Below, in pieces: positions 2,698 through 27,683 of a stretch of DNA of 64,000 nt. Source of the DNA: a bacterium (GTDB lineage Bacteria; Zixibacteria; MSB-5A5; GN15; FEB-12); the NCBI GenBank assembly GCA_030612965.1, contig JAUWMW010000001.1, positions 182-64,181 of the forward strand, given 5' to 3'. The position numbers and the translations under genes are program-made. Position 1 is the first letter of the stretch, and the number at the start of each line of letters is the position of its first letter. The notes under the pieces are model-generated. The model was not told the DNA's origin. It saw nothing but the letters and a program-made list of their open reading frames with translations, and made no database searches.

Positions 2698-4229
2698 GCA
2701 TGATGTTTGTTGTAAGAGATACCTCGCGAACGCTACCGGCCAGTGCCGTGCCCTTTGTCAGCGCCACGCTGGATGACCTGTATGAATACGCCTTGGAACT
2801 GAAGCGTGCACAATGCCCCACCTGGACGGACGAAAGCGACAGCGACTTCGGTATCTTCCTCTTGCATACTTTCTGCGTGCTCGCGAAGTTCACCGCTGTC
2901 CAGGCGCACCGATGCAAAAACGACACCTACCTGGCCACGACCGCGGACCGTGAGGTCATGCGCAAGTTGTGCCAACTGATAAATTACGAGCTGGCCGAGG
3001 CATCTGCCGCAGCGGTGACGATGACGTTCACTTGTGAATCAGGTCATCCCGGTTTCACCATCACCGCCGGGAGCCAGGTCGCTACGGTAGAGACCGATGA
3101 CGAAGATGCGATCATCTTTGAGGTCGGAGCCGACACAGTGGTCGGTGCCGGTGTAACATCAATCACGGCAACCTGTAGCCAAGGCACCACCGTGTCACAA
3201 GAGAACGTCGGTCTCTCCGACGGCACCTCCGGACAGACCTTTACACTATTGAACAAGTCTGTGATCTGGCACTCCGAAACGGTTGAAGTTTACGACGGCA
3301 TCTGGACAAAGTGGACCCTGGTGGACGACTTCACGGAGTCGACACCGACGTCAAAACATTATCGCTTGCAGCTCGGCCCCGAGAGTACCTACCAAATGGT
3401 ATTTGGTGACGGAACCAACGGTGCTATTCCTCCCGTGCGCGATGAAGGTGTCCGGGTTACTTACCGCATCGGCGGCGGTACGATCGGTAATGTTGCTGCC
3501 GGCACGATTGTCGAGATCATTACGCCTTACCAATATGTTGAAAGCGTCACGAACGAGGCTATTGCTACCGGTGGCACGAACCAGGAGACATTGGAACACG
3601 CCAGGCAGTTTGCCCCGGCGGCTATCCGGAGTCTACAGCGAGCCGTGACCATCGACGATGTTGAATATCTCTGTGAACAGTATACGTCGACAACCTACGG
3701 GGGCGTGGCGAAGGCGCGTGCCCATGTGGTTGGTAGTTACCTGGCTCACGTGTCCGTGATTCCTCAGAGTGGCGGCCTGCCGAGTGCCGGGTTCAAGTCG
3801 GAACTATCTGCAATGCTGGCTGACAAAGTGATGATCGGGACTGTGATCGAGGTGATTGATCCACACTATGTTACCGTGGACATCTCCGCAGACGTCACCG
3901 TGATGCCAACCTATCATCTGCCAACAGTTGCCGGCGCCGTAGCGGCGCGCTTGCAGGCGTTCTTGTCACCGCTCTATCAGGACCCGCAAACGGGCCTGTA
4001 CTCGCATCAATTCGGCCGGAACATTTATATCTCGGACGTCTATGCCATCGTCAACGGCACGCCCGGTGTTGACTTTTGTCACATCACCGCACCCACATCG
4101 GATAACATCGTTGCGGACTATCAGATTGCAAGGCCCGGCACGATCACGATAACACCTTACGGTGACCAAGAGGCGCCACCGTTCCATGACAGCCGGTACA
4201 GACCGAGACCGGGACATTCGGATGTTTAG
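2694..4229 (+). CDS. Baseplate J-like protein (P2 gpJ / T4 gp6 family)
   Basis: 511 aa. The N-terminal TWTDESDSDFGIFLLHTF...YLATTADRE pattern and its size and position after gp25-like are typical of Baseplate_J. Start is GTG 2694 or ATG 2700. Confidence 0.8.
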   Translation: MSMMFVVRDTSRTLPASAVPFVSATLDDLYEYALELKRAQCPTWTDESDSDFGIFLLHTFCVLAKFTAVQAHRCKNDTYLATTADREVMRKLCQLINYELAEASAAAVTMTFTCESGHPGFTITAGSQVATVETDDEDAIIFEVGADTVVGAGVTSITATCSQGTTVSQENVGLSDGTSGQTFTLLNKSVIWHSETVEVYDGIWTKWTLVDDFTESTPTSKHYRLQLGPESTYQMVFGDGTNGAIPPVRDEGVRVTYRIGGGTIGNVAAGTIVEIITPYQYVESVTNEAIATGGTNQETLEHARQFAPAAIRSLQRAVTIDDVEYLCEQYTSTTYGGVAKARAHVVGSYLAHVSVIPQSGGLPSAGFKSELSAMLADKVMIGTVIEVIDPHYVTVDISADVTVMPTYHLPTVAGAVAARLQAFLSPLYQDPQTGLYSHQFGRNIYISDVYAIVNGTPGVDFCHITAPTSDNIVADYQIARPGTITITPYGDQEAPPFHDSRYRPRPGHSDV

Positions 4230-4237
4230 AGTAAAAC

Positions 4238-6760
4238 ATGAATAGTGAGCTAACAAAAACACGCCAACTCTCGCGACTCTTACCGCCTCGCGATGATACC
4301 CTCGGTCTCTGGCGGTTCCGCAATGATCTGTCCGACAGTTCTGGTTATGACCACGACTTAACGGCGGTCGCCATCGGTTCTTATATCTCCGGTGGCCTGA
4401 CCGAAAATGTGCTGACAGCCATTGCACCTACCGGGCCGGCGGGAGCAGCAGCCAAGATCGTTGCGGCGTCGGCGACTGACTTCGACATGGGCGCCGGGGA
4501 CTTTACTGTTGAGATCATAGCATATACGACGGAAACTTCGGGTATGTTCATGCTCAGTAAAAATGATGGCGGTTCACCATTGACCGGCTTCTATATCGGC
4601 GCCGGAGCGAACTTATTCGCCTATAAGATCGGTGATGGTTCCAACGAAGTGTCCGGAGTCAGCTCGGCGGCCGTGAATGATGGACGGTGGCATCATTTTG
4701 CTATAGTGTTTGATCGCACCAACGACCAGGTATGCTTTTACATAGACGGCATGGAAGATTCGGGCAGTCCGGACAATCTCGCCTCTGTGACCGGTAGTAT
4801 CTCAGCCGCGTCGAACGACTTCGAGGTTGGCAAATGGTGGAATGGTGGTATAGATGAGATTGCCTTTCATAAGCACGCCTTGTCGGCAGCCGAGATCGCT
4901 GCGCGGGCGGCCGGTAGGCTGGCACCGTTCGTGCGGGTCACGCCCGGGGAGCTGAAGGGATACCTGCGCGGAATAGACGATGCACCGATAGTCGATGAGG
5001 TCCTGCTGCCGTTTGAATATCCGTTTGCGGCCCTACGACAAAAGGCGCGTGAGATCACCGACCTCGTGAAGCTGGATCAAGTCCCTGAACGGCACCTGCC
5101 CGCGCTGGCGAGTCTTTTCAACTTTGAATTGCCAGACGCAACCCTACTTTCTCTCCGCAAACGGCGTATCATGTTCAAGTGGATCACCTGGCTTTATCAG
5201 CACAAAGGTACGCACGCCTGCGCGCAAAAATTGATTGATCTGGCGGGTCTCACGGCCACAACAATAGATCGATACCCCGACAACGTCGCGTTCATTTTGA
5301 ACGGCAGTCGAATCTTCGGATATGTTCTTGTGCCGCAGACGTTCTTCATCGAGGATTTCGCCGGGAATCTCTCTCAATGGGATCCGCCCTTGGATTCCAG
5401 CCTTCCCTGGCGGCTTCAGAATGAAGCCCTGTATTGTAAGGTTGGCGCTCTAATGGATTACGATAGCGCGATTCTGTTTGATGATTCCGAGAAATCGTTT
5501 TACATCCAGGCCGATGTCAAAATGATTGCCAATCCGGATGTGCCATTCGGGTTTTACCTGGCTTATCAAGATTCAAACAATTGGTTGCGACTCGCAAAGG
5601 AACCGGCCGTAGGGAACGCCAAATGGATGCTCCGCTGGTCGGATGCCGGTGTAACCGGCTACGCTTATATAGGTTCAACTTGGGGCGATTTCTGGGATAC
5701 CTATTCTGCCGGGGACACGATTAAGATATGGATTCATGCCGATTTGGACAAGAAAGTGTACACGGCCGGGGCCGACGATCACACTTGTGCCTTTGAGGTC
5801 ACACCTTCGCATCCAGACATAACGGGATCGAAAAAAGGGCTGTGGTTGGGATACAACGCCGAGCTCGAATGGGATAACGTGTCCGTGAAATCCATGCGGG
5901 CGCAAATCAATGCCGTATTGTTCGATGAGGACGCCCGTCTCGGTCGCGGTCTCAGACTCAACTATTCGGGCACATCGAGGAGTTCTCAGGCAAAGAAAGC
6001 GTATGTAGCTGCGGTTCTTCCTCGGTATGTCCCCCTCGGCGTCGTCCTGGAGTGGATCCGGGACATTCCGGTCGCTTCACGGATAGGATTTCGGACGGGT
6101 AATATCACGGTCGTGTCCGGCTGGGTTCTCAATGGAGACCGGGCAGCACGCATTGGTTTCCGGACGGGCGGCATTACCCCGATCAAGGGCAGCCTTGTGA
6201 GGACGCCAGACGCTTCGAGATTTGGACTGCGGACCAGTATTAGTGAGGTTGTTAAAGTCCCGGGAGCCATTCGGATAGGATTCAGAACGGGCGACATAAC
6301 GAAGATAAAGCAATATATCCCCGTGGAGGGGCACATAAACAATTTAGATACTGACCGAGAGAATGAGGCTTTCGGAGGCGATTCCCGTCCTTATCTCATC
6401 GATAGTGATTACGATACGCCAATGCCTTTTGAGCCAAGTGACGACTGTTCAATAGGATTAGAGTTCGCTGAGAGCAAAAACATTGACATAATCATACTGT
6501 ATGACTCTTACACATCAGAACCTGACGGTTTGTACTCGTCTGGTAATAATAAACTGAAAGTCTATTCGGGTTCATCAGATTCACCTTACGTGCTTGAAGA
6601 AACATTTGCTACGCTGACGCGAACAGGGAGGAAGATCGTCTTAAGTCTGGCAACCACAATAACCGCTAAATGGATCAAAGTATTCCCGCACGATGGAAAA
6701 TTAAGGTCCTCCAATGGCGAGGCATTATTCTATAGTGAAATTGAAGCATATCAGAATTAA
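4238..6760 (+). CDS. Fusion protein: LamG (concanavalin-like) + P2 gpI-like tail protein + 4x RIGFRTG repeats + discoidin/F5-8C-like C-terminal domain
   Basis: LamG pattern GDFTVE...GRWHHFAIVFD...FYIDG...GGIDEIAFHKHALSAAEI. gpI pattern HLPALASLFNFEL...KRRIMFKWITWLYQHKGT. The C-terminus ends in a WIKVFP...FYSEIEAY beta-sandwich-like segment. Confidence 0.7.
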   Translation: MNSELTKTRQLSRLLPPRDDTLGLWRFRNDLSDSSGYDHDLTAVAIGSYISGGLTENVLTAIAPTGPAGAAAKIVAASATDFDMGAGDFTVEIIAYTTETSGMFMLSKNDGGSPLTGFYIGAGANLFAYKIGDGSNEVSGVSSAAVNDGRWHHFAIVFDRTNDQVCFYIDGMEDSGSPDNLASVTGSISAASNDFEVGKWWNGGIDEIAFHKHALSAAEIAARAAGRLAPFVRVTPGELKGYLRGIDDAPIVDEVLLPFEYPFAALRQKAREITDLVKLDQVPERHLPALASLFNFELPDATLLSLRKRRIMFKWITWLYQHKGTHACAQKLIDLAGLTATTIDRYPDNVAFILNGSRIFGYVLVPQTFFIEDFAGNLSQWDPPLDSSLPWRLQNEALYCKVGALMDYDSAILFDDSEKSFYIQADVKMIANPDVPFGFYLAYQDSNNWLRLAKEPAVGNAKWMLRWSDAGVTGYAYIGSTWGDFWDTYSAGDTIKIWIHADLDKKVYTAGADDHTCAFEVTPSHPDITGSKKGLWLGYNAELEWDNVSVKSMRAQINAVLFDEDARLGRGLRLNYSGTSRSSQAKKAYVAAVLPRYVPLGVVLEWIRDIPVASRIGFRTGNITVVSGWVLNGDRAARIGFRTGGITPIKGSLVRTPDASRFGLRTSISEVVKVPGAIRIGFRTGDITKIKQYIPVEGHINNLDTDRENEAFGGDSRPYLIDSDYDTPMPFEPSDDCSIGLEFAESKNIDIIILYDSYTSEPDGLYSSGNNKLKVYSGSSDSPYVLEETFATLTRTGRKIVLSLATTITAKWIKVFPHDGKLRSSNGEALFYSEIEAYQN
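6080..6313 (+). repeat. Four in-frame ~22-aa repeats with core R-[IF]-G-[FL]-R-T-[GS] inside the gpI-fusion gene
   Basis: RIGFRTGNITVVSG / RIGFRTGGITPIKG / RFGLRTSISEVVKV / RIGFRTGDITKIKQ, read directly from the translation. Confidence 0.85.
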
Positions 6761-10149: not shown

Positions 10150-10185
10150 ATCCCCTCGTTGTGTGGCTGTGCTCCCACGACGACA

Positions 10186-10223
10186 GGCGGGCGACTCGGC
10201 ATCAGTCGTCCGCCCTGTTTTTT
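10186..10223 (+). terminator. Rho-independent terminator ending the structural/lysis operon
   Basis: GGCGGGCGACT-cggcatc-AGTCGTCCGCC (one G:U pair) followed by CTGTTTTTT. Confidence 0.7.
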
Positions 10224-10797: not shown

Positions 10798-11048
10798 TAT
10801 GAACCGTCAGCTATCCCGATTAAGACACTGACGGAAGTTTGGAGCCGGCCCCGACTGCTTATCGAAAGCGCGCAAAGCAATCGTCCACACCAACCAGGAA
10901 TGACCCGAATGGTAGTACAGCAGACCGGCGTACTGAACTGTTTGGTGGATTTTGGGTGCGGGCGGGGGTGGTTGGCCCGCCAGAGCCGAAGCTCCGTGAC
11001 TGTCGATCCGCACATGAAGTTGAAGCGTTCGATATGTCGCGCCCGCAT
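10797..11048 (-). CDS. Hypothetical 83-aa ORF (weak)
   Basis: Starts 1 nt after the stop of the 40-aa ORF and ends at the terminator stem. Composition is W/C/R-rich and not convincingly protein-like. Confidence 0.3.
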   Translation of the reverse strand: MRARHIERFNFMCGSTVTELRLWRANHPRPHPKSTKQFSTPVCCTTIRVIPGWCGRLLCALSISSRGRLQTSVSVLIGIADGS

Positions 11049-11049
11049 G

Positions 11050-11172
11050 TCATCGTGTTCTGCCTCTTCTGAGTTTATCGTAGAAGCGCAGCCGCCGCCT
11101 GTACCGACGGCGAACTGCTTTGTTCTTGACGTGTTTGATCTGCGCGTGGCGCTCCATGATTTGCGATCTCAT
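11050..11172 (-). CDS. Tiny arginine-rich ORF (40 aa)
   Basis: Hand translation gives MRSQIMERHAQIKHVKNKAVRRRYRRRLRFYDKLRRGRTR. ATG lies 12 nt after the RHH stop. Below the ORF-track size cut-off. Confidence 0.3.
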   Translation of the reverse strand: MRSQIMERHAQIKHVKNKAVRRRYRRRLRFYDKLRRGRTR

Positions 11173-11184
11173 AGCTCGCACTCT

Positions 11185-11370
11185 CTACTTGTTCTGGTCC
11201 GCAAATTCATCGGACCGTTGCTTTTCATCTTCCTCATCCATCGCCCTCTCCAGGAGCCGCGTTGCAACCTTGCTAACCGGCAGGTCCTCAGCTTTCGCCT
11301 TGCGAGTCAGTCGTCGCTTGGTCGCGCTCGGTATCCGGACGTAAAGGATGTCTTTCTTAACTGTACTCAT
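11185..11370 (-). CDS. Ribbon-helix-helix (Arc/CopG-type) DNA-binding protein, candidate repressor
   Basis: MSTVKKDILYVRIPSATKRRLTRKAKAEDLPVSKVATRLLERA fits a beta-strand plus two helices RHH layout. Start chosen downstream of the predicted -10, giving a near-leaderless transcript. Confidence 0.7.
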   Translation of the reverse strand: MSTVKKDILYVRIPSATKRRLTRKAKAEDLPVSKVATRLLERAMDEEDEKQRSDEFADQNK

Positions 11371-11382
11371 TGCGATTGCCAT

Positions 11383-11410
11383 GATATAGCAACCTGCTAT
11401 CACTTGTCAA
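11383..11410 (-). promoter_or_regulatory. Sigma70-like promoter for the RHH operon
   Basis: On the minus strand: TTGACA(AG) - 16 nt - TATATC. The -10 ends about 12 nt before the MSTVKK ATG. Confidence 0.5.
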
Positions 11411-11421
11411 GCACTTTTTTC

Positions 11422-11452
11422 AAAAAAACGCCGACCTGTCTCCAGGCCGACG
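11422..11452 (-). terminator. Strong rho-independent terminator (minus strand only)
   Basis: RNA reads CGUCGGCCUG-GAGA-CAGGUCGGCG + U7: a 10-bp stem with two G:U pairs and a GNRA loop. On the + strand the wobble pairs become A:C mismatches. Confidence 0.75.
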
Positions 11453-11487
11453 TCTGCAAAGACAACCACTCTCAGGAGAGAGTAGGG
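11422..11487 (-). ncRNA. Candidate ~65-nt small RNA or leader in the switch region
   Basis: Bounded by the minus-strand promoter (TTGACA-17-TATCTT) and the terminator. Predicted 5' hairpin ACUCUC-UCCU-GAGAGU plus the terminator hairpin. No ORF. Confidence 0.35.
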
Positions 11488-11493
11488 AACGCC

Positions 11494-11522
11494 AAGATAG
11501 GAGCGGACTTGCGCGTTGTCAA
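11494..11522 (-). promoter_or_regulatory. Sigma70-like promoter (minus strand) driving the candidate sRNA
   Basis: Minus strand: TTGACA (11517-11522), 17-nt spacer, TATCTT (11494-11499). Confidence 0.4.
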
Positions 11523-11667
11523 CTATATTATGTAAATTTAGGAAAAATAATACTTGCGCTCAGGATTCAACAGGGCTATCTTGCCGCCGATGCCAACATT
11601 ACTGACAACCAGAACCATCCTGGTCGGCCTGACCGGGAATTATTTCAGAGCGAAAGGAGTGCCACGT

Positions 11668-11919
11668 ATGGTAAAACCAAGGCTGTTGCGATTCAGCCGC
11701 AGCAAATTGAGACAGTGGCTGGATGCGAACGAGATGGACGCCGGTGACATGATGCGACAGATGGTTAAGGAGGGTCCGGACGATCTTCAGCCATCGAGCA
11801 CGTATATTCAAAACGTCCTATCCGGCCAGACTAAGCGGCCGTCCGCCGACTATGTCTTTCTGTTCGCATTCGTCCTGGGCTGTTCAATCGATGAGCTCGG
11901 GGAACCTTATGACAACTGA
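11668..11919 (+). CDS. XRE/Cro-type helix-turn-helix regulator
   Basis: ATG 11668 is preceded by AAAGGAG. SSTYIQNVLSGQTKRPSADYVFLFAFVLGCSIDEL matches the XRE-type HTH tail. Divergent from the RHH gene. Confidence 0.65.
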   Translation: MVKPRLLRFSRSKLRQWLDANEMDAGDMMRQMVKEGPDDLQPSSTYIQNVLSGQTKRPSADYVFLFAFVLGCSIDELGEPYDN

Positions 11920-26159: not shown

Positions 26160-26345
26160 ATGACAACGTGCGATTGGTTTGACAACGGCGCCGGCACAAC
26201 CTTACAATGGGTAGGGCCAGAGGATTCCGTCGACTCGGCCAATCGCTATTTACTCACCCAGTGGGGGTCGTCCGCCGTCCACGCATCTACCGAGTCATCA
26301 GTGATTACTGTCCGGGTTGCCGCTTTTTTATTAGCTGTAACGTAA
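26160..26345 (+). CDS. Hypothetical protein
   Basis: 61-aa ORF, the last before a 200-bp non-coding gap. Confidence 0.4.
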   Translation: MTTCDWFDNGAGTTLQWVGPEDSVDSANRYLLTQWGSSAVHASTESSVITVRVAAFLLAVT

Positions 26346-26439: not shown

Positions 26440-26468
26440 TTGACAAGGTTTGGCCAATTGCCGATATT
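26440..26468 (+). promoter_or_regulatory. Sigma70-like promoter (middle-gene cluster)
   Basis: TTGACA(AG) at 26440-26445, 17 nt, GATATT at 26463-26468 (TATTTA/TATAGT follow). Lies in a non-coding gap upstream of 26548. Confidence 0.55.
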
Positions 26469-26547
26469 TATAGTATGAAAACGACTGAAGGACATAGAGT
26501 TGAAACTTTAACCGGGGATTGCAAAGCCCCACAATCAGGAGAGAATC

Positions 26548-26865
26548 ATGAGACGGAAGAGAAAACTGATGGCGGCCCAAAAGGAGGCCGCTGCGGAACG
26601 GCGGGCCAAGGTCCGGCCAATGCTGAAGAGGATTGCTCGGGAGCCAGTTACGGACAATAGAAGCCGAGCCAAACGAGCAGAGGAAACGGTATTGAGTCAC
26701 GCCGATGAAGACTACTCAATCGACTACGCCATAACGGACCTATTGGTCGACCTCAGACATCTTTGTGATTTCAAAGGTCTGAGCTTTGTAGATCATGACC
26801 GGACTGCCCATGATCACTATACAGAAGAAGTTGTAGAGGAACGCCATGCCGGAGGTGCGGTGTGA
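26548..26865 (+). CDS. Hypothetical protein (basic N-terminus)
   Basis: 105 aa with AGGAGA upstream. Confidence 0.55.
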   Translation: MRRKRKLMAAQKEAAAERRAKVRPMLKRIAREPVTDNRSRAKRAEETVLSHADEDYSIDYAITDLLVDLRHLCDFKGLSFVDHDRTAHDHYTEEVVEERHAGGAV

Positions 26866-27683
26866 GTCCACTATGCAAAGCAACCACCGCCGATGGCAAG
26901 CCATGTATGACTCCGGCCCAGGCAGGTCGAAAGTTCTGTTACTGGCATCGGCGTGGAAGGTCGACGGCGCCCAAGCCGGCCAGGCGGACACGTAAACGAT
27001 CAGAGCCGAAGGCTATGCCGATGGTCACGATCGTGCAACGCCTGGACGAAAAGTGGCGGCCAGCCACGTTCAAGGATGTTGTCGGTCAGGAGTCGGCCAT
27101 CCGGAAGATTACGACCGTACTAAGCCGAGGCTGGGGTGCCCGGGCCTTTTGGTTATCCGGTGACTCCGGGACCGGCAAGACCACCTTGGCTCACATTATT
27201 GCCAAGTCTGGAGCAACGGATGCCGATATCGGTGACCACTTCGGGCGGATCACGGAAGTGGTCGGACGTGAGATGTCACCAGCTGGCCTGACGGCCATTA
27301 TGCACGACTGGATGTTTGCCGGAGGCCACGCCTTGATCGTGAATGAGGCTCACGGACTCAACAAGGTAATGATCGAAATCTTTCTGAACGTCCTAGAACA
27401 ACTAAGGCCGAACGTAGTGGTGATCTTCACGACTACGAATGAAGGCGAGGACTTGTTCAATGGACAGGCGGACGCAGCGCCGTTCGCTTCCAGGTGTCTA
27501 TGCCTGAACCTGAAGTCGGACGGCTTGACGATTCCGTTTGCCCGACGTGCCAAGTTCATTGCTCGCAAAGAGAACCTCGACGGTAGGCCGATCACGGCTT
27601 ACCGGAAATTGATGAAACGACATAACAACAACCTACGCGCCGCGCTCTCGGAGATCGAGGCCGGTGCGATGCTGGAGGATTGA
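26862..27683 (+). CDS. AAA+ ATPase, clamp-loader (DnaX/RFC)-like, with N-terminal Cys/His cluster
   Basis: WRPATFKDVVGQ...LSGDSGTGKTTLA (Walker A), LIVNEAHGL (Walker B/DExx-like) and VVIFTTT (sensor 1). N-terminal C-x10-C-x10-C-x2-H cluster. Confidence 0.75.
   Translation: MSPLCKATTADGKPCMTPAQAGRKFCYWHRRGRSTAPKPARRTRKRSEPKAMPMVTIVQRLDEKWRPATFKDVVGQESAIRKITTVLSRGWGARAFWLSGDSGTGKTTLAHIIAKSGATDADIGDHFGRITEVVGREMSPAGLTAIMHDWMFAGGHALIVNEAHGLNKVMIEIFLNVLEQLRPNVVVIFTTTNEGEDLFNGQADAAPFASRCLCLNLKSDGLTIPFARRAKFIARKENLDGRPITAYRKLMKRHNNNLRAALSEIEAGAMLED

Follow-up and report, generated by a model that had tools for sequence, protein, structure and literature searches.

The intergenic region between two divergently transcribed regulator genes of a tailed phage raises the question of whether it holds a gene of its own and, if so, of what kind. 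We analysed a stretch of 64,000 nucleotides (nt), here called the window, which corresponds to positions 182 to 64,181 of contig JAUWMW010000001.1 (GenBank assembly GCA_030612965.1), with the focus on positions 11422–11522, where a first-pass annotation had placed on the minus strand either a small RNA (sRNA) gene or a terminator-controlled leader of the ribbon-helix-helix (RHH) gene that follows. A discrete, non-coding and conserved unit of about 65 nt with its own promoter and terminator is present there, which upholds the former proposal as to the unit itself and leaves its regulatory function as a prediction; the leader alternative appears less likely. The unit is a credible phage sRNA candidate of a known class, with a putative function, and we tentatively read it as an autonomous phage sRNA gene whose product would be a base-pairing riboregulator with a second role as an insulator in cis—an account to which we give somewhat less than an even chance. 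Coordinates refer to the window unless a contig is named, with the strand in parentheses; contigs are designated by L numbers, and relatives of the locus were found solely among Logan/ENA metagenome contigs.

Anatomy of the putative small-RNA unit

Every element proposed for the unit was found in place on the minus strand, which confirms the observation itself. The promoter consists of the −35 hexamer TTGACA (11517–11522) and the −10 hexamer TATCTT (11494–11499), which are 17 nt apart and match the consensus at 10 of 12 positions, with the hexamers and spacing of a sigma-70-type promoter. A score of this kind alone is not rare, with nine matches of at least 10/12 observed in the window against 6.1 ± 2.6 expected; of the nine, two conserved ones fall within the 300 bp between the regulator genes. 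Transcription from this promoter would start about 7 nt past the −10 hexamer (at ~11487) and stop some 65 nt on at an intrinsic terminator, giving a predicted RNA of about 64–66 nt (11422–11487, −) that ends within a U tract.

The predicted RNA divides into two domains, of which the 5' one is a hairpin (11466–11485, −) with arms CUACUCUC and GAGAGUGG around a UCCU loop, whose core ACUCUC-UCCU-GAGAGU, already described in the first-pass annotation, lies at 11483–11468 and extends to 8 base pairs (bp; 11485–11466); its CU-rich arm and loop (CUCUCUCCU) form a pyrimidine-rich stretch that resembles an anti-Shine-Dalgarno (anti-SD) sequence. The second is a stem-loop (11429–11452, −) in which the arms CGUCGGCCUG (11452–11443) and CAGGUCGGCG (11438–11429) form 10 bp, two of them G:U, capped by the GNRA-type tetraloop GAGA (11442–11439) and followed by the tail U7 (11422–11428, −). 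The linker CUUUGCA (11455–11461, −) that joins the two domains is predicted to be mostly unpaired and is a candidate seed or chaperone site.

With an energy of about −21 kcal/mol and a stem that reaches 13 bp through an A:U/G:U extension, the stem-loop and its tail have the make-up of an intrinsic terminator, which is backed by the fold, the genome scan and the homologues, and termination would be expected at U7. Folding energies are −33.2 kcal/mol for the minus-strand 74-mer (z = −4.9, equalled by none of 200 shuffles) and −20.7 kcal/mol (z = −1.8) for the plus-strand RNA, in which the long stem is broken by two C:A mismatches. The structure is strand-specific because the two G:U pairs turn into these mismatches on the plus strand, and the earlier claim that the terminator works in the minus orientation only is borne out. 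Hairpins of −10 kcal/mol or lower followed by at least six T's number two in the 64 kb: this unit and one at 10186–10223 (+). A consensus terminator scanner missed the sRNA terminator, probably because maximal extension of the stem pairs three of the U's with AGA.

An Hfq-type module, as defined by the Aiba laboratory, comprises a 3' terminator hairpin, a long U tail and a U-rich single strand before the hairpin. The unit has this layout, with the U7 tail and with UUGUCUUUGCA predicted to be unpaired just 5' of the hairpin. An anti-SD-like stretch, an unpaired CUUUGCA and a U-tailed terminator together make up, as far as the predicted fold goes, the usual layout of a base-pairing sRNA.

Two other identities, a peptide gene and a PtaRNA1-like type I antitoxin, are together extremely improbable. 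Neither strand of the unit holds a conserved open reading frame (ORF), as judged from the ORFs of the window and a reading of the relatives' sequences. The earlier statement that the transcript contains no ORF stands in the sense that there is no ATG and that the sole frames, a 20-codon GTG and a 21-codon TTG frame, lack a usable SD sequence. The GTG frame, which would encode a peptide of 20 amino acids (aa) from 11469 to a TGA at 11407, is also open in L001, and by our own reading a similar frame is open in L018, but it crosses the terminator hairpin and stops inside the −35 hexamer of the next promoter. On the plus strand, 11422–11522 is crossed by a 266-aa frame antisense to the RHH gene, which we judge to be spurious, and by a 29-codon TTG frame (11516–11605) that clips only the −35 end of the sRNA promoter.

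In the whole window no Rfam family reached its gathering score, and at E ≤ 10 the locus matched only PtaRNA1 (RF01811), below threshold. Like that RNA, the unit is built of two hairpins over about 72 nt, with a loop of the CUCUCU type and a terminator rich in GC, and the alignment is full-length, but its 19.5 bits in the window and 23.0 bits in L001 are far under the gathering score of 47, and L018 gave no match. PtaRNA1, a plasmid-transferred antisense RNA, is encoded opposite a small toxin gene of the XCV2162 family, which it overlaps; the strand opposite the unit has no toxin ORF, and the resemblance is architectural rather than one of family membership. A Y RNA identity (YrlA, RF02553) was rejected, with no YrlA match in this region of the window at E ≤ 10, as was a tRNA or tmRNA identity.

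Conservation in related phage contigs

The full unit occurs in three lineages, namely the window, L001–L004 (~85% DNA identity) and L018 (YqaJ exonuclease 62% identical), of which L017 is a truncated copy. Protein-guided searches for the locus with the XRE-type and RHH regulators returned nothing from IMG/VR, JGI metagenomes or GTDB genomes. All three lineages keep the −35 hexamer (TTGACG in L001–L004, TTGACA in L018), the 17-nt spacer to the −10 hexamer (TATCTT, or TAGATT in L018, where the distance is held despite spacer indels), GGCG after the −10, the motif ACUCUCUC(C)UGAG of the 5' domain, CUUUGCA, the stem and U7. L018 differs by a 17-nt insertion in the 5' domain, a stem longer by 3 bp and a GAAA loop.

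A covariance model, R1, built from the window and L001 alone, recovers L018 at E = 0.002 and a further copy in L020 at E = 3e-6, and the homologues are L001–L004, L018 and L020. L020 (YqaJ 50% identical) has no unit between its divergent promoters; its copy (L020 1878–1943, −) lies inside the leftward operon between two small genes, has the same two G:U pairs and shows C:G where the window has U:A. CUUUGCA is identical in the window, L001 and L018 and reads GUUUGCA in L020, where the A-tract that follows the tail now reads as an SD sequence (AAGAGG) and a relic TTGACA stands just before the next ATG. In L019, L021 and L022 the intergenic region is short and the unit is missing.

In the stem, all 43 of the 43 cells of the four distinct homologues hold standard pairs. 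Four of the ten pairs vary, three of them by a change on one side (G:C, G:U, A:U) and one through the series U:A, U:G, C:G. Each substitution is compatible with pairing on the minus strand only, and the plus strand would carry two to three C:A mismatches per homologue. This speaks against the view that the conserved letters are sites in DNA for RHH, XRE or a recombination protein, formed by the imperfect palindrome of the stem, which can equally be read as the direct repeat GTCGGC-N9-GTCGGC, and by the palindrome ACTCTC-TCCT-GAGAGT. RHH proteins in general often bind repeated sites, and GTCGGCCTG recurs in the XRE leader hairpin (11623–11631; inverted repeat I6). The ACTCTC palindrome is nevertheless lost in L018, the likely RHH operator is the inverted repeat I2 within that gene's own promoter, and L020 keeps the hairpin with no RHH gene in the locus, all of which makes sites in DNA very unlikely as the explanation.

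Exact-pattern scans with segments of the sRNA gave matches that all lie in coding or unrelated GC-rich contexts and were rejected. Three related, GC-rich viral contigs from IMG/VR (L025, L026 and L028) carry CCUUUCGCA-YGCGG-CGUCGACCCG-GAAA-CGGGUCGGUG-CCG-UUUU, for example at L028 2040–2110 (+); this hairpin and the motif before it resemble the sRNA module, have no Rfam match and stand in an unrelated gene context, and we judge the resemblance to be convergent or due to chance. A further IMG/VR contig, L024, was a chance pattern match in a coding region and holds at 3446–4714 (−) a TROVE/Ro60 homologue that is 26% identical to the L018 protein mentioned below.

Candidate targets in the 26.5-kb operon

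Lambda OOP and P22 sar are antisense to a gene that they overlap; here, in contrast, nothing is predicted opposite the unit, so any target of the sRNA must lie in trans. The proposed RNA would base-pair there through its CU-rich loop and the CUUUGCA linker, cover the SD sequence of orf26548 and codons 5–9 of orf26862, and thereby lower translation. Among the plus-strand RNAs of the phage itself, which were searched for complementarity, one locus stood out. The first candidate site (26520–26544, +) lies at the SD sequence of orf26548 (AUG at 26548), where UGCAAAG, CCAC and UCAGGAGAGA could pair with CUUUGCA, GUGG and UCUCUCCUGA, respectively, and where UGCAAAG is presented in the loop of a GGGG/CCCC hairpin. 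The perfect helices of 7 and 10 bp give a collinear chain score of 17, which about 1% of dinucleotide shuffles reach (P ~ 0.01) and in which the 4-bp CCAC/GUGG helix between them is not counted. About 350 nt downstream, the second candidate site (26874–26887, +), in codons 5–9 of the clamp-loader-like AAA+ gene orf26862, contains UGCAAAG and CAACCAC and could form 14 bp with GUGGUUG-U-CUUUGCA around a 1-nt bulge.

Among 185 start regions ranked by net gain in cofolding, orf26548 came first (−13.4 kcal/mol) and orf26862 second (−12.6 kcal/mol). Sites with a chain score of at least 14 number three, compared with 0.57 per 64 kb in shuffled sequence, by a statistic that is post hoc. The operon at 26.5 kb may therefore be called a lead as a target of the sRNA, not a finding. 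It is headed by a strong promoter-like TTGACA-17-GATATT (26440–26468, +) preceded by AAAAAAAGTGCGAAAAAGG. A second strong promoter-like sequence, TTGACA-18-TACAAT (11 of 12; 26179–26208, +), lies inside a small ORF, and a second promoter plus short-RNA unit at 26179–26336 was rejected, the segment 26214–26336 being unstructured (z = +0.4). The sRNA sequences that could pair with a target are each lineage's own, UUCGCUUUGCA in L001 and CUCUCUCUGAGG...CUUUGCA in L018.

The first-pass annotation had pointed instead to the 5' untranslated region (UTR) of the XRE gene as a place to look for complementarity. That suggestion did not hold up: the window offers only an 8-nt match of UGGUUGUC with GACAACCA (11604–11611), which is not kept in relatives, and a 9-bp match in L001 and L004 was rejected as common to neither the window nor L018.

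Several observations weigh against the proposed sRNA gene. Its candidate target sites were read in the window, the contigs of the relatives not reaching the 26.5-kb region. An RNAduplex target scan of the window was not significant against shuffles, nor was the shuffle test of the cofold gains, in which the shuffles lose hairpin 1; the chain statistic was designed after the first site had been seen. The L020 copy has no promoter and its U tract has decayed to CUUUG, so that independent transcription is not universal. In the shuffle control for covariation, 268 of 500 shuffles reached the observed score, a statistic made uninformative by the small number of distinct homologues (n = 4). The module of CUUUGCA and hairpin is 83% identical between the window and L020, compared with 58.5% for their XRE and YqaJ genes at the DNA level, a difference that counts in favour of the sRNA; the high identity might, however, stem from a cassette that recombined recently and not from selection for an RNA function. 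In L018 the local hairpin of the 5' domain is replaced by a longer-range CCUCAG/CUGAGG stem, and the conservation of the 5' motifs is one of sequence, not of structure; that the motifs are kept in sequence where the local hairpin is lost suggests that the body of the RNA matters.

The leftward operon and its phage counterparts

The window is almost the entire genome of a tailed phage (the source contig measures 64,242 nt) and encodes portal, tail sheath, tape measure, baseplate J, head protease and endolysin proteins. The phage is novel and myovirus-like: its terminase is at most 27% identical to that of any deposited phage, and blastn against deposited phage and plasmid collections found no DNA match beyond a generic promoter motif described below. 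No integrase was found among the ORFs scanned in the window, whereas the first-pass annotation had allowed for a lysogenic context. Nearly all genes lie on the plus strand, and leftward genes are limited to one small operon (11370 to ~10261).

The description of the flanking genes as divergent regulators proved right at the level of the fold, according to structure models and Foldseek. The first gene of the leftward operon (11185–11370, −; 61 aa; Pfam RHH_5 below threshold) has, on the evidence of its AlphaFold 2 (AF2) model, a ribbon-helix-helix fold with an extended N-terminus and two helices (predicted local distance difference test, pLDDT, 82), with Foldseek matches to ORF56, AmrZ, CopG and Arc. 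Rightward, a Cro/CI-type helix-turn-helix gene of the XRE type (11668–11919, +; 83 aa; weak Pfam HTH_3; AF2 pLDDT 85), whose model matches 434 Cro, C.AhdI, the N-terminal domain of TP901-1 CI and SinR in Foldseek, is followed by the YqaJ exonuclease gene and by recombination and replication genes.

The RHH gene has a promoter of its own, TTGACA-18-TATCAT (11 of 12; 11381–11410, −), which is conserved in L001, L016, L017 and L018 and near-consensus in every lineage, relatives without the sRNA included; the inverted repeat I2 (GATAGCA...TGCTATC) lies between its hexamers. The gap reported earlier between the unit and this promoter is indeed 11 nt (11421–11411, before TTGACA at 11410–11405) and is filled by an A-tract, GAAAAAAGTGC (11411–11421, −), that fits the proximal UP-element consensus AAAAAARNR. 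Together, U7, which fits the distal half, and the A6 tract follow the UP-element pattern directly upstream of the −35 hexamer. In cis, the sRNA terminator may thus insulate the RHH promoter, by halting RNA polymerase 11 nt before it, and contribute to it, with U7 and A6 forming an UP-like element. AAAAAAGWGCTTGACAAG is itself a generic motif of strong promoters: in the form AAAAAAG[AT]GCTTGACAAG it was seen in more than 120 unrelated viral contigs (L030–L109, IMG/VR), none of which carried the sRNA, many of which have a TATAAT-like hexamer some 17–18 nt downstream and several of which have a hairpin immediately upstream. An UP element joined to a −35 hexamer is, to judge from these contigs, a widespread promoter design and often a terminator–promoter composite, and since the motif is generic it is no longer counted as evidence of homology.

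The RHH ATG lies 10 nt past the −10 hexamer (11368–11386) with no SD sequence, so the mRNA would be nearly leaderless, like that of lambda cI from PRM, and a read-through leader of 117 nt would be poorly translatable. None of the four homologues is predicted to form an antiterminator in competition with the terminator. A read-through leader is less likely than a discrete sRNA with an insulator because the RHH gene has its own promoter and no SD sequence, no antiterminator fold is predicted and the terminator is strong.

A conditional terminator, at which a phage or host factor would read the CUUUGCA box and the GNRA-capped hairpin and allow read-through when the RHH promoter is auto-repressed, by analogy with lambda PR'-tR'/Q or N/nut, is distinctly unlikely for several of the same reasons. 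In its favour, promoter, short leader, terminator and operon share one orientation, as in lambda PR'-tR' (6S RNA) and Stx-phage StxS, where a promoter, a short non-coding stretch and a strong terminator precede an operon; in Stx phages the short terminated RNA StxS acts as an sRNA in trans (PMC12197685). The lambda genes downstream of tR' need Q for read-through, whereas here a conserved promoter of the RHH operon lies between terminator and gene, and neither a Q-like nor an N-like protein was identified. The hairpin is kept in its primary sequence, its two G:U pairs recurring in L020 as in the window and its loops being of the GNRA type (GAGA or GAAA), and the element lies inside the operon in L020. 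CUUUGCA stands 2–3 nt upstream of the hairpin, in the order boxA then boxB, and a small arginine-rich protein is encoded nearby, as at lambda nut with its single-stranded box, spacing of a few nt and GNRA-type hairpin. The boxA consensus is CGCUCUUA or UGCUCUUUA, however, with which YUUUGCA shares, by eye, only a UCUUU/CUUU core, a weak likeness. In boxB a stem of 5 bp carries a GNRNA pentaloop, to which an arginine-rich motif of the N type binds; the stem here measures 10–13 bp, carries a GAGA or GAAA tetraloop, runs into a U tract and is itself a terminator.

The arginine-rich ORF in question (40 aa, MRSQIMERHAQIKHVKNKAVRRRYRRRLRFYDKLRRGRTR; 11050–11172, −) directly follows the RHH gene, matches no family and recurs in L001 and L003 with conservative substitutions; the counterpart in L003 was found by alignment, and a called gene of 44 aa there was rejected as its homologue. 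In the sequenced parts of the L018 and L020 loci the ORF is missing. That CUUUGCA, 2–3 nt and a GNRA hairpin with two fixed G:U pairs form a new protein-recognised RNA switch is highly improbable: the 40-aa protein or a host Nus-type factor would then read the terminator hairpin, and transcription of the unit would either end with an sRNA or run on into the variable cargo of the leftward operon. The stretch after this ORF (10940–11055, −) is conserved and, since 1-nt and 2-nt indels set it apart from L001, is probably non-coding. Its fold, a three-way junction with GCGGGCG/CGCCCGC as the closing helix, is not significant (z = −1.7); its position is the one held by Y-RNA-like genes in L018.

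The cargo of the leftward operon indeed varies, with small proteins in the window, Y-RNA-like genes and Ro60 in L018 and Lar-like genes in L020. L018 (3–1990, −) and L017 (290–1542, +) have an RHH-led leftward operon with a TROVE/Ro60 gene (Pfam E = 1e-32), preceded, downstream of RHH, by YrlA-like candidates, two in L018 and one in L017 (38–39 bits against a gathering score of 69, E ~ 1e-5). ARAGORN reports a tRNA-Ile-like element in each locus, which overlaps the YrlA match in L018 and does so with its 3' part only in L017, and a 251-aa ORF called there is probably spurious. Such an arrangement suggests a Ro60/Y-RNA module that is carried by the phage and controlled by an RHH regulator. The idea that the sRNA is tied to this cargo was rejected: the sRNA has no Y-RNA signature and the window has no TROVE gene.

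L016 shares with the window just T7, the A-tract, the RHH promoter and the RHH gene, with the hairpin upstream replaced; homology of 90.6% over 256 nt begins at L016 137, opposite the last hairpin base (window 11429), and ends just past the RHH stop codon, and the shared segment appears to behave as a mosaic module. This junction, exactly at the 3' end of the hairpin, supports a different account, in which the unit is a terminator–promoter composite and insulator that shields the RHH promoter and supplies its UP-like tract, the 65-nt RNA is a by-product, the upstream promoter pairs or competes with the divergent XRE promoter or acts as a polymerase sink, and the cassette is a recombination joint for leftward cargo. 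The differing cargo fits it as well, as do the L020 copy at a gene junction with its relic TTGACA and the hairpins directly upstream of the UP and −35 motif in several unrelated phage contigs. A precedent is offered by PeSLs of T4-type phages, which combine a stem-loop terminator with a strong sigma-70-like promoter and an AT-rich upstream region (PMC2839356) and are documented as shuffling cassettes of promoter and stem-loop (PMC2839356, PMC4122927). The hairpin 11452–11429, the T7/A6 tract and TTGACA-18-TATCAT have the same make-up, with mosaic junctions beside variable small genes.

We nonetheless consider this composite rather unlikely as the explanation. PeSLs occur in an unrelated phage group at about 50 dispersed copies per genome, where they flank ORFans, whereas the 64-kb genome analysed here has a single copy, the next R1 match scoring 9 bits. 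The stem-loop of the unit has its own promoter ~40 nt upstream, which would make it the end of a discrete RNA, unlike in PeSLs, and a by-product would not call for a near-consensus promoter whose 17-nt spacing survives indels. Nor does the composite explain why ACUCUCUC and CUUUGCA are conserved across lineages, or why the promoter-less L020 copy keeps its pairing with a compensatory change.

The remaining features of the locus concern its two flanks. The XRE gene has a putative divergent promoter, TTGCGC-17-TATCTT (11554–11582, +), whose −35 scores under the threshold of the promoter scanner and whose −10 and downstream GCCGCCGATGC are kept in all lineages. The sRNA and XRE promoters have the same −10 context, each in its own orientation (CTATCTTGGCG at 11490–11500 and CTATCTTGCCG at 11576–11586); this common CTATCTTGSCG constitutes the 11-nt inverted repeat I4. 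Along with ACTTGCGC, which is present twice (11507–11514 and 11552–11559), it may mark sites of a shared regulator. The XRE 5' UTR contains a hairpin (UCCUGGUCGGCCUGACCGGGA) followed by AUUAUUUCAG (11618–11638, +), which the scanner flagged as terminator-like and which has GUCGGCCUG in common with the sRNA stem; it is found in the three sRNA-bearing lineages and not in the sRNA-less L019–L022, a pattern confounded by phylogeny. On the other flank, the strong intrinsic terminator at 10186–10223 (+; −23.7 kcal/mol and T6) follows the lysis genes, ends a long series of plus-strand transcription and points towards the end of the leftward operon. Positions 10150–10223 (74 nt) are 100% identical in L001 and L002, between flanks of ~80–85%.

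OOP, sar, PreS and VpdS represent an established class of phage sRNAs that stand alone, each with a promoter and a terminator of its own (PMC12197685). The ~65-nt unit is like lambda OOP (77 nt), P22 sar (68–69 nt), lambda PreS and VP882 VpdS in size, in having a sigma-70-type promoter of its own and a Rho-independent terminator with a U tail, in its place in or beside a phage early regulatory region and in being non-coding. It differs in having no sequence or Rfam relationship to them, and also in that the tail of its terminator serves in addition as the UP-like tract for the promoter that follows. To our knowledge, few phage sRNAs have been described outside model coliphages, Salmonella phages and vibriophages.

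The sRNA reading adds a well-supported candidate to this known class, from a phage lineage without a close cultured relative, and overturns no concept. If the RNA is made, it would be a compact and tractable regulator at the central divergent control region of the phage, with a concrete and testable target hypothesis in the clamp-loader-like operon, and its design would be an economical one in which a single hairpin with its U/A tract serves as terminator, insulator and UP-like element. The module also marks a mosaic joint at which the cargo differs between relatives (Ro60 and Y-RNA-like genes among it), and in this respect it bears on the way in which phages shuffle their accessory genes.

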